Origin: Puniceicoccales bacterium
GTDB lineage: Bacteria; Verrucomicrobiota; Verrucomicrobiia; Opitutales; LL51
NCBI GenBank assembly: GCA_031283585.1
Contig: JAITBP010000007.1
Span: 30,001-62,000 of the forward strand
Direction of reading: 5' to 3'
Length of the DNA stretch: 32,000 nucleotides
This document shows positions 7,110-8,734 of this stretch, piece by piece (the stretch's first letter is position 1; every line of letters starts with the position of its first letter). Made by a program: the position numbers and the translations under genes. The notes under the pieces are model-generated. The model was not told the origin of the DNA, did no database searches, and saw only the letters and a list, made by a program, of their open reading frames with translations.

Positions 7110-7637
7110 ATGAATAAGTTATTGATAATAAGCATGTTATGTATAATTATTTCCGGTCCAACTGTCTCCGGATTTTCATTTCAAAACAAATGCTATAGGA
7201 TAGAAACTAAAAGTGATATGGATAAAATGTATGATATTGTGGATAATCCAGATATGGATAATATGACCAAGGCCCAAATACTGGTCTATGCCTATCGAGA
7301 ATATGTAAATAGCAATGAGTATACAAACAAAAAGACGTCCATGTACTTCCCCTATTTCAATTTTGGTGAACCTAGAAATTATAAAACAACCTATATGAGT
7401 AATCTAAGACCCATTAGCCAAAACAATAATTATATACTAACGGATAATAAAATTATCGACGAAATTGCCGAAAAGATTTCTACCCATGGATTATGGAAAC
7501 CTGCCAGCAACAAAAGGAATAACAATAAAGAACGTAAAGACAAACAAAACAAACAGGTAGATCAAGCGCCCAAAACAGTAGACAGCCAACCAGAACATGA
7601 GGGTTTTTCGTCCTTAGGTGATGATTTATGGTTTTAA
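7110..7637 (+). CDS. Small secreted protein, paralog A of a three-member tandem family (175 aa)
   Basis: The ATG at 7110 gives a Sec-type signal peptide MNKLLIISMLCIIISGPTVSG. Family motifs shared with B and C are DKMYDIV, YAYREY, YFPYFN and NKIIDEIAEKI. The tail is basic (NKRNNNKERKDKQNK). The ORF-track TTG start at 7011 would add 33 non-conserved residues ahead of the signal peptide. Confidence 0.75.
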   Translation: MNKLLIISMLCIIISGPTVSGFSFQNKCYRIETKSDMDKMYDIVDNPDMDNMTKAQILVYAYREYVNSNEYTNKKTSMYFPYFNFGEPRNYKTTYMSNLRPISQNNNYILTDNKIIDEIAEKISTHGLWKPASNKRNNNKERKDKQNKQVDQAPKTVDSQPEHEGFSSLGDDLWF

Positions 7638-7671
7638 ATAAGGATTTCTGGTTTTTGCAACACAAATAACA

Positions 7672-7699
7672 TTGACCTGATAGGCTATAAGCTTAGAAT
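7672..7699 (+). promoter_or_regulatory. Sigma70-like promoter candidate for small secreted protein B (near-leaderless geometry)
   Basis: TTGACC (7672-7677), a 16-nt spacer, TAGAAT (7694-7699), then 10 nt to the ATG at 7710. There is no Shine-Dalgarno. Confidence 0.45.
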
Positions 7700-7709
7700 A
7701 AACCTGGCG

Positions 7710-8153
7710 ATGAACAGGTTGTGGATGTGGATGATTTTGATATGGATGGGACTATCTGTTGGTGATGTTTTGGCGGTCAACATAAATGGGAAAGAGTACA
7801 TCGTCAACAACGCCAATACGATGAAAGAAATATATGGAGTTGTGCAGAAAGAATCGAAAAAAACCTATAGCGAAAAAGCCAAATATATGGTAGAGGCCTT
7901 CAGAGAATATACTGGGCATCATCCAGAGGAGCATAATGGCTACTGGCTGTTTTTTGATAGTGATATAATAATATATGATCATAACCTAGATGACGATCGT
8001 ATTATAGGTGAAGTTGCGAAGGCAATGGAAAATTATGATAACCATAGAATATATACTATCTCTACAGGTTACATTGATCCAAAATCTAAACCTAGACGCA
8101 GAAAACGTCCTGCGAGATCTAAAAATAAAAGACCTGTGGCAAAACGGATGTAA
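7710..8153 (+). CDS. Small secreted protein, paralog B (147 aa)
   Basis: Signal peptide MNRLWMWMILIWMGLSVGDVLA. Family motifs are NGKEY, KEIYGVV, EAFREY and DRIIGEVAKAM. In the C-terminal tail PKSKPRRRKRPARSKNKRPVAKRM, 13 of the last 24 residues are K or R. Confidence 0.8.
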   Translation: MNRLWMWMILIWMGLSVGDVLAVNINGKEYIVNNANTMKEIYGVVQKESKKTYSEKAKYMVEAFREYTGHHPEEHNGYWLFFDSDIIIYDHNLDDDRIIGEVAKAMENYDNHRIYTISTGYIDPKSKPRRRKRPARSKNKRPVAKRM

Positions 8154-8161
8154 AATTTATA

Positions 8162-8190
8162 TTGTCTAATCCATCGTTTTCTATTACAAT
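8162..8190 (+). promoter_or_regulatory. Sigma70-like promoter candidate for small secreted protein C
   Basis: TTGTCT (8162-8167), a 17-nt spacer, TACAAT (8185-8190), then 22 nt of A-rich sequence to the ATG at 8213. The TTG that the ORF track uses as a start codon is the first base of this -35-like hexamer. Confidence 0.4.
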
Positions 8191-8212
8191 AAATCACATT
8201 TTTGCAAAAAAA

Positions 8213-8734
8213 ATGATAAAAATTTTAATCAAAGGAACCAGAGTTATAATCTGCTGGATATTGCTCCATCACCAGGCCTTCGCATTTGAGCTCAATGGTG
8301 TGATCTATCGTCGGGTTAGGAATATAGAGGATGTGAAAAACATGTACGCTGTTGCATCCAGTCAAAGCAACTACAAGGATGCTGCTACCGTATTAGTTGA
8401 ATCCATTCGCGAGTATATGAACAATGTCACATGTGACCATGACATCGATCTACTTCCATATTTTGACAACAAGATAAAACACCGCAATTATCTATATGGA
8501 AATAAAATTATCGGTAAACTTACTAAAGAAATGGCTAGAAAAAAATTTACGCTTAATCAACCTTTTTCCTACAAAATTGAGTCATCCCGCGTACTATTAA
8601 GACTCGGTGAAAAAAACGAAAAAAGTAAAAAAGCTGAAAAAATTGAAAAAACTGAAAAAGCTGAAAAAAATTCTAAATACCAAAACGTAATAAAAAGAAA
8701 AAGAAGAACTATCCCTTGGCCTAGTGATTTATAA
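8213..8734 (+). CDS. Small secreted protein, paralog C (173 aa)
   Basis: The ATG at 8213 gives the signal-like N-terminus MIKILIKGTRVIICWILLHHQAFA. Family motifs are NGVIY, KNMYAVA, ESIREY, LPYFDN and NKIIGKLTKEM. The C-terminus has a lysine/glutamate repeat (EKNEKSKKAEKIEKTEKAEKNSK) followed by KRKRR. Confidence 0.75.
   Translation: MIKILIKGTRVIICWILLHHQAFAFELNGVIYRRVRNIEDVKNMYAVASSQSNYKDAATVLVESIREYMNNVTCDHDIDLLPYFDNKIKHRNYLYGNKIIGKLTKEMARKKFTLNQPFSYKIESSRVLLRLGEKNEKSKKAEKIEKTEKAEKNSKYQNVIKRKRRTIPWPSDL

Follow-up and report, generated by a model that had tools for sequence, protein, structure and literature searches.

A clade-restricted tandem family of small proteins with predicted Sec signals and NLS-like tails in Puniceicoccales

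Three tandem genes

We analysed a 32,000-nucleotide stretch of a Puniceicoccales bacterium genome (contig JAITBP010000007.1, positions 30,001 to 62,000), which we call the window. It holds an array of three consecutive plus-strand genes, each coding for a small protein with a predicted Sec signal peptide, a common core and a C-terminal tail. The three window copies are labelled W1, W2 and W3; L002, L003 and L004 denote the other loci with members of the family.

7110..7637, plus strand: W1, family copy 1, 175 aa; open reading frame with predicted signal peptide, core with an 18-residue insertion, and mixed tail
7710..8153, plus strand: W2, family copy 2, 147 aa; open reading frame with predicted signal peptide, core, and polybasic tail KPRRRKRPARSKNKRPVAKRM
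8213..8734, plus strand: W3, family copy 3, 173 aa; open reading frame with predicted signal peptide, core, and K/E-rich repeat tail with KRKRR near the C-terminus

These open reading frames (ORFs) agree exactly with the coordinates, strand and lengths (147–175 aa) given in an earlier reading of this DNA, the first-pass annotation. W1 corresponds to NCBI protein P0001, ‘hypothetical protein LBB20_02050 [Puniceicoccales bacterium]’, from a metagenome-assembled genome (MAG), and W3 to P0002 (LBB20_02060), likewise named as from a Puniceicoccales bacterium MAG; both are encoded on a 101-kb contig. Longer TTG-initiated ORFs are also present at 7011 and 8162. The ATG starts at 7110 and 8213 are preferred because homologues elsewhere start at an equivalent MNKLL-type methionine.

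Sequence comparison identifies W1, W2 and W3 as genuine paralogues. Pairwise BLASTP gives E = 3e-4 for W1 and W2, 7e-4 for W1 and W3, and 4e-8 for W2 and W3, with 23–29% identity across 82–100 residues. Once members from other genomes join the comparison, E falls as low as 7e-18; W1 and L3b, the second copy at L003, are 42% identical (E 2e-17). The proposed tandem triplication is supported, and paralogy is backed statistically by both BLASTP and a profile hidden Markov model (HMM) of the family. The motifs that had been listed for the three copies by eye are present, except that the last one reads IAEK rather than IAK in copy 1. The supposedly invariant REY holds in the window copies but is KEY, RDY or REC in other members.

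Distribution

Word-index searches covered 5.8 billion proteins, and an exhaustive HMMER profile scan covered 1.84 billion cluster representatives. The word-index searches matched only proteins of Puniceicoccales MAGs and one contig from the Joint Genome Institute (JGI), and the profile scan added just four further members. The full member set relied on corrected gene starts and on synteny-guided retrieval; a search guided by synteny with a CesT-family chaperone gene yielded L004 and its new member, L4. In all, the family has nine copies in four sources, eight intact and one disrupted. Every source with more than one copy has them in tandem.

Window: W1, W2, W3
L002: L2a (disrupted), L2b, L2c; MAG JAIRTH01 (GCA_031255005.1)
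L003: L3a, L3b in tandem; 1.36-kb JGI contig
L004: L4, directly divergent from tmk; MAG JAIRXD01, isolate Gsp477_bin142

The family HMM was run on 6,215 ORFs from 85 sequences: the window plus 84 loci, of which 80 were unrelated tmk loci serving as a negative control. It found family members and no other match at E<10. GTDB species representatives, plasmids and phages yielded no further members. Scanning metagenomes with CesT returned nothing; with tmk, the only matches were distant tmk genes (<=51% identity), none of them close to a family member. Across these searches the family is lineage-specific and restricted to one small clade.

One apparent match was rejected as spurious. P0005 (1,121 aa, with GNGIVIGEMAEALG repeats) reached a profile E of 1.2e-5, a score summed over its repeats, and its hhalign probability was 2.3%. 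P0005 is itself an unusual repeat protein, with a signal peptide and about 12 winged-helix-like repeats (…GNGIVIGEMAEALG…YRFADV).

Evolutionary tempo

All pairs of family members are 22–38% identical, within a genome as well as between genomes. Flanking orthologues of the window and L002, by comparison, are 57–96% identical (MreB 96, CesT 84, tmk 79). The low identity and fast divergence suggested earlier are borne out by this difference. A neighbour-joining tree of the family is star-like. Clear one-to-one orthologues are not evident, so positional orthology is unsupported.

The first array copy of L002, L2a (5529-5995 of that locus, plus strand), is a pseudogene with a TGA at the arginine codon of REY and a later frameshift. 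CGA to TGA would be the simplest change for the first lesion. UGA recoding has been reported for members of the wider ‘Nucleococcus cluster’ (PMC8204192). In L2a, however, the position should hold R/K and not W, and a second lesion is present.

A short repeat lies in the tail of W3.

8608..8685, plus strand: A-rich 9/27-nt tandem repeat in the W3 tail (Tandem Repeats Finder), encoding EKNEKSKKAEKIEKTEKAEKN, of EKxEK type

The tails appear to grow by replication slippage. Taken from these sequence patterns, the array is fast-evolving and of the birth-and-death kind. It would evolve through duplication of promoter-plus-gene units, rapid divergence and pseudogenisation.

Protein architecture

Signal peptides. 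Signal peptides were judged by rules (hydrophobicity, charge and the residues at −3/−1), and export is a prediction from those rules. For each window copy the hydrophobic region (h-region) and the −3/−1 residues agree with the Sec-type signal proposed earlier; mean Kyte-Doolittle (KD) values are given below.

7110..7172, plus strand: predicted signal peptidase I (SPase-I) signal peptide, copy 1 (MNKLLIISMLCIIISGPTVSG / FSF); K in the n-region, KD 3.37, V/G at −3/−1
7710..7775, plus strand: predicted signal peptide, copy 2 (MNRLWMWMILIWMGLSVGDVLA / VNI); KD 2.25, V/A at −3/−1
8213..8284, plus strand: predicted signal peptide, copy 3 (MIKILIKGTRVIICWILLHHQAFA / FEL); KD 2.17, A/A at −3/−1

The best 10-residue hydrophobic stretch has a mean KD of 2.2–3.6 in all eight intact members. 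Each of them has V, A, S or I at −3 and G or A at −1, followed by a conserved F/V at +1. The putative cleavage site falls in a single alignment column conserved across the nine members, and the mature protein starts with the conserved pattern F-x-[FL]-x-[GN]-K-x-Y. Most members, though not all, have K/R among their first residues; the first eight residues carry net positive charge in five of the eight intact members and are neutral in L2c, L3b and L4.

Three other classes of N-terminus were considered and rejected. A lipoprotein signal (SPase II) does not fit: the recurrent Cys (ISILC, ITILC, ISMLC) sits in the middle of the h-region, with L at −1, and forms no lipobox ([LVI][ASTVI][GAS]C). 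L2a and L2b have G in place of this Cys, and W2 lacks it. A type IV pilin or pseudopilin would be suggested by the G/F junction (SG/FSF, SG/FEF), but here the hydrophobic stretch precedes the junction and the downstream sequence is polar (FEFNNKTY). Substrates of type III (T3) secretion were rejected given the strongly hydrophobic, Sec-type N-termini and the position of the genes on the strand opposite the CesT operon.

Core. The core spans about 85–90 aa and is modelled by AlphaFold2 (AF2) as α/β, in the order β-hairpin, α, α, β-hairpin, α. Its conserved helices are AAT-x-LV-x-AF-REY and N-x-II-x-E-[VI]-AK. Two independent AF2 runs on the mature core of W2 gave the same topology. The predicted local distance difference test (pLDDT) averages 74 for the core; it peaks near 90 within the first 45 residues and falls below 50 in the tail.

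The first-pass annotation recognised no known domain, and our searches agree. Pfam, NCBIfam, PADLOC and PHROGs gave just scattered sub-threshold matches to single members with nothing consistent among them, and a profile search of PDB sequences gave nothing credible. Structure prediction on the core had also been proposed; searches of PDB and BFVD with the AF2 model, at its mean pLDDT of 74, returned no structural match. The family is new in sequence, and its modelled fold is possibly new too.

Tail. The most distinctive feature of the family is a polybasic C-terminal tail resembling a nuclear localisation signal (NLS), which the first-pass annotation did not mention. Tails are 37–93 residues long, and pLDDT below 50 wherever they were modelled suggests that they are disordered.

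8040..8150, plus strand: C-terminal tail, copy 2; pLDDT <50 from mature residue 92, 38% K+R, pat4/pat7 patterns, RRRKR at nt 8094-8108
8546..8731, plus strand: C-terminal tail, copy 3; KRKRR at nt 8693-8707

Runs of at least four K/R residues, up to seven, occur in five of the eight intact members (RRRKR, KRKRR, KKKR, KRRRKRK, RKRKR) versus 3 of 23 other window proteins (Fisher p = 0.013). Net tail charge is at least +12 in half of the intact members (W2, L2c, L3a and L4); W2 has +13 and W3 has +9. The W1 tail is mixed, with a basic segment NKRNNNKERKDKQNK followed by an acidic end. At the level of patterns only, PSORT-type NLS matches (pat4, pat7, bipartite) are found in 7/9 copies, all of them in the tail, versus 10/39 background proteins (p = 0.006).

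Genomic context

The array lies between tmk and a tRNA gene in both MAGs that have flanking sequence.

6257..6913, minus strand: tmk (thymidylate kinase), the conserved left-hand boundary; Pfam E 3.9e-49, divergent from the array, syntenic in L002 and L004
8743..8819, minus strand: tRNA-Val(cac), the conserved right-hand boundary; found with ARAGORN, same place in L002

The window and L002 have a common order: tmk (leftward), three family copies (rightward), tRNA-Val (leftward), one or more orphan secreted proteins (rightward) and an M50 peptidase (rightward). L004 has a single family copy at the contig edge, adjoining tmk. Because the array occupies a common position in the window and L002, it predates the split of these genomes and does not stem from a recent insertion at the tRNA. 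A mobile element or tRNA island was rejected as an origin. The stretch from tmk to M50 contains no integrase, L002 keeps the array and tRNA-Val in synteny, and searches turned up no phage or plasmid relatives; no search aimed at direct repeats was made.

Candidate promoters precede the second and third genes.

7672..7699, plus strand: sigma-70-like promoter candidate, copy 2; TTGACC-16-TAGAAT, 10/12 matches, consensus match only
8162..8190, plus strand: sigma-70-like promoter candidate, copy 3; TTGTCT-17-TACAAT, consensus match only

A −35-like box of the type ATTGAC(A) stands 30–45 nt 5' of the ATG of most family genes in the four sources. Its recurrence suggests that the genes are individually promoted and that promoter-plus-gene units were duplicated.

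To the left of the array, the minus strand carries tmk, holB, a CesT-family chaperone gene and then genes for proteins of 395 and 716 aa. This gene order and the CesT match agree with the placement described earlier, divergent from tmk-holB and across from a chaperone/cargo cassette.

4965-5402, minus strand: CesT-family chaperone; Pfam E 3.9e-12, overlapping the holB 3' end by 29 nt

The 395-aa and 716-aa proteins are encoded at low GC content and have a common N-terminal segment of about 83 aa (47% identical, E 5e-20). By sequence, window positions 1328-5402 (minus strand) look like a T3 chaperone with paralogous substrates, apparently in one operon with tmk-holB and in the same orientation. 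The arrangement is repeated in L002, with a counterpart 25% identical.

To the right of the tRNA lies a second kind of lineage-specific protein, which belongs to the same low-GC segment and is not a family member.

8998..9981, plus strand: lineage-specific protein of 327 aa; N-terminus resembling a signal peptide, acidic repeat tail

Its acidic tail derives from a 63-nt tandem repeat (x3.2) at 9722-9920, and the last 40 residues have a net charge of −14. Similarity to its two positional counterparts in L002 (341 and 351 aa) is undetectable. An acidic-tailed secreted protein next to a basic-tailed family might hint at a partnership.

GC content is 33–37% in the family genes, the acidic 327-aa protein and the candidate T3 substrates, versus 41–51% in housekeeping neighbours. 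The low-GC segments (34–37%) at 1000-5000 and 7000-10000 coincide with the lineage-specific secreted or effector-like genes and are flanked by housekeeping genes of 41–52% GC; L002 has the same contrast.

Farther right are housekeeping and envelope genes, including M50 peptidase, NIF3, mreBC, an LpxL-GT9 fusion and fabF. The fusion is a 634-aa ORF (15367-17271, minus strand) joining Lip_A_acyltrans and GT9 heptosyltransferase, and it is kept in L002 at 68% identity. Signal peptidase I (20874-22316, plus strand) is unusually long at 480 aa; the S26 match is mainly C-terminal, and the N-terminal extension of about 300 aa is unannotated.

Host context

The accessions of the two sister MAGs, JAIRTH and JAIRXD, fall within JAIRJQ-JAITXW, a range deposited by a termite-gut study (PMC11257099). 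That study of 48 termite-gut metagenomes describes small-genome, low-GC Opitutales of lower termites (GTDB LL51, UBA9783) as putative endosymbionts of gut flagellates (PMC11257099), related to the endonuclear Ca. Nucleococcus (PMC11257099; see also PMC8204192). The source organism is a probable protist symbiont, and it is read as diderm because genes for lipopolysaccharide (LPS) are present in the window.

The first-pass annotation had considered fast-diverging exported families typical of host-interaction or envelope-defence loci. A host-associated context is supported by the Puniceicoccales MAG matches, the termite-gut accession range and the adjacent CesT chaperone with two candidate substrates. 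Envelope defence is unsupported; PADLOC gave nothing consistent. Beyond the reach of that annotation were the array's conserved position in sister genomes, its birth-and-death turnover with one pseudogene, and its restriction to a small clade.

Interpretation

Our preferred reading, held with moderate confidence and drawn from the features above, is that the family comprises rapidly diversifying, lineage-specific small interface proteins of termite-gut Puniceicoccales/Opitutales, exported by Sec and equipped with a polyanion-binding tail. Each protein would be exported across the inner membrane and its signal cleaved by SPase-I. The core would then serve as a fast-evolving binding surface, and the cationic tail would act as an electrostatic tether to a polyanion, which could be host nucleic acid or chromatin, an acidic membrane or the bacterium's own LPS. 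The family may thereby act at the symbiont-host or envelope interface. Conceptually it is familiar, as an instance of the orphan secreted proteins of host-dependent bacteria.

Several points weigh against this reading. Export is predicted by rules, and in a diderm a Sec signal alone reaches only the periplasm; the sequence at hand contained no identifiable route across the outer membrane. The fold model was built on seven sequences only, at the mean pLDDT given above. A termite origin of the window is suggested by shared NCBI naming, by related locus-tag prefixes (LBB20, LBH49, LBI37) and by synteny with L002 at 57–96% identity. Two of the eight intact members, W1 and L3b, have no strongly basic tail, so the basic tail is frequent, not universal. 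Polybasic runs are also non-specific and occur in envelope-binding, ribosome-associated and antimicrobial proteins.

A more specific form of the preferred reading, which we regard as doubtful, makes the proteins effectors of the host nucleus or chromatin. After Sec export they would be released through outer-membrane vesicles, a route like the type II secretion system (T2SS) or lysis. The tail would then serve as NLS and/or DNA-binding segment inside the flagellate host, or within the nucleus itself should the bacterium be endonuclear like Ca. Nucleococcus. Such a target is possible. Basic clusters of the monopartite (K-K/R-x-K/R) or bipartite NLS type mark the tails of seven of the nine copies. 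The clade has been placed in the literature as a relative of Ca. Nucleococcus, and fast evolution next to a candidate T3 chaperone and substrates fits a host-interaction locus. Yet an NLS pattern is a poor predictor, and two members have none; DNA binding alone would be enough for an endonuclear bacterium, with no need of an NLS; the intracellular or intranuclear lifestyle of the source MAG is itself only putative; and the missing outer-membrane route counts here as well.

By analogy, phytoplasma SAP11 (PMC4235307) and Holospora PRP1 (PMC9866348) may serve as precedents. SAP11 combines small size, Sec secretion and an NLS in one effector (PMC4235307). Like the phytoplasma SAPs, members of the present family are of about 10–20 kDa, come from a genome-reduced, host-dependent bacterium, have a predicted cleaved Sec signal and a basic NLS-type segment, contain no enzymatic domain, and are lineage-specific and fast-evolving. 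There is no sequence similarity, however, and the present family matches no Pfam or NCBIfam family. The NLS of SAP11 is N-terminal and bipartite, on a coiled-coil body, whereas the basic segment here is C-terminal and the modelled core α/β. Phytoplasmas have no outer membrane, and therefore Sec export equals secretion in them; the present organism appears to be diderm.

PRP1 of Holospora obtusa, a 63-kDa periplasmic protein, is released into the host macronucleus and binds host DNA (PMC9866348). It comes from a Gram-negative protist symbiont and has a putative signal peptide, and so offers a precedent for a diderm Sec-exported protein that reaches host chromatin. It differs in its 63-kDa size, in its D5_N-type DNA-binding domain, in not being a tandem multigene family and in having no homology to the present family. 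LntA of Listeria is another small, basic, signal-peptide-bearing secreted nucleomodulin that enters the host nucleus. Unlike the present family, it comes from a Gram-positive source, is all-helical and is encoded by a single gene of unrelated sequence.

Closer to hand, the neighbouring T3-type cassette (CesT, 395-aa and 716-aa proteins) resembles the array in its locus, its low GC and its rapid divergence (25% identity to the L002 counterpart), and the two probably belong to one host-interaction gene pool. They differ in that the family has classical Sec signals, which are not a feature of T3 substrates, and in that the array is transcribed divergently from the chaperone operon.

The boldest form of the nuclear proposal is, in our view, unlikely: a new class of chromatin- or nucleus-directed Sec-exported effector with an undescribed α/β fold, in flagellate endosymbionts like those of the Nucleococcus cluster. 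Here the tail would be an NLS or DNA-binding module, and the core would engage host nuclear targets from an arms-race-like birth-and-death array.

An envelope-binding role with drift is a serious rival to the preferred reading, if a rather improbable one. The proteins would be structural components of the periplasm or outer envelope whose tails bind the cell's own LPS, peptidoglycan or phospholipid, thereby stabilising or masking the envelope of a symbiont with a reduced genome, and their divergence would reflect relaxed constraint and AT-biased drift. A Sec signal with no outer-membrane route identified leads to the periplasm by default; the low GC, the pseudogene and the slippage repeats would fit relaxed selection, and the neighbourhood includes envelope genes (mreBCD, the LpxL-GT9 fusion, Wzz and a sulfatase-family protein). 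Selection keeping the array is indicated instead by its two to three intact copies, with promoter-like boxes of their own and the same locus in at least two MAGs. Proteins of this kind are, moreover, usually conserved over wider taxa, and none of the other genomes searched contains a family member.

Secreted cationic antimicrobial or competition factors, bacteriocin-like proteins whose tails permeabilise the membranes of competitors in the termite-gut or flagellate niche, are very improbable because no adjacent immunity gene, ABC exporter or processing peptidase was found: the small, predicted-exported, cationic-tailed, tandem and fast-evolving proteins would suit such a role, and these traits do occur together in bacteriocin loci, but there is no similarity to Pfam or NCBIfam bacteriocin families, the tails are hydrophilic and non-amphipathic, and reduced-genome endosymbionts rarely invest in interbacterial warfare.

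Implications

Almost nothing is known of how verrucomicrobial protist symbionts, the endonuclear Ca. Nucleococcus lineage among them, interact with their hosts, and this locus offers concrete candidates. They consist of a clade-restricted array of predicted exported proteins with NLS-like tails, beside a putative T3 chaperone/substrate cassette and further orphan secreted proteins. If the array encodes envelope proteins, it would be an ordinary orphan family of a reduced genome. If host nucleic acid or nuclei are what the tails target, the family would provide tractable Sec-dependent nucleomodulins in a diderm symbiont, with a fold that is probably new.

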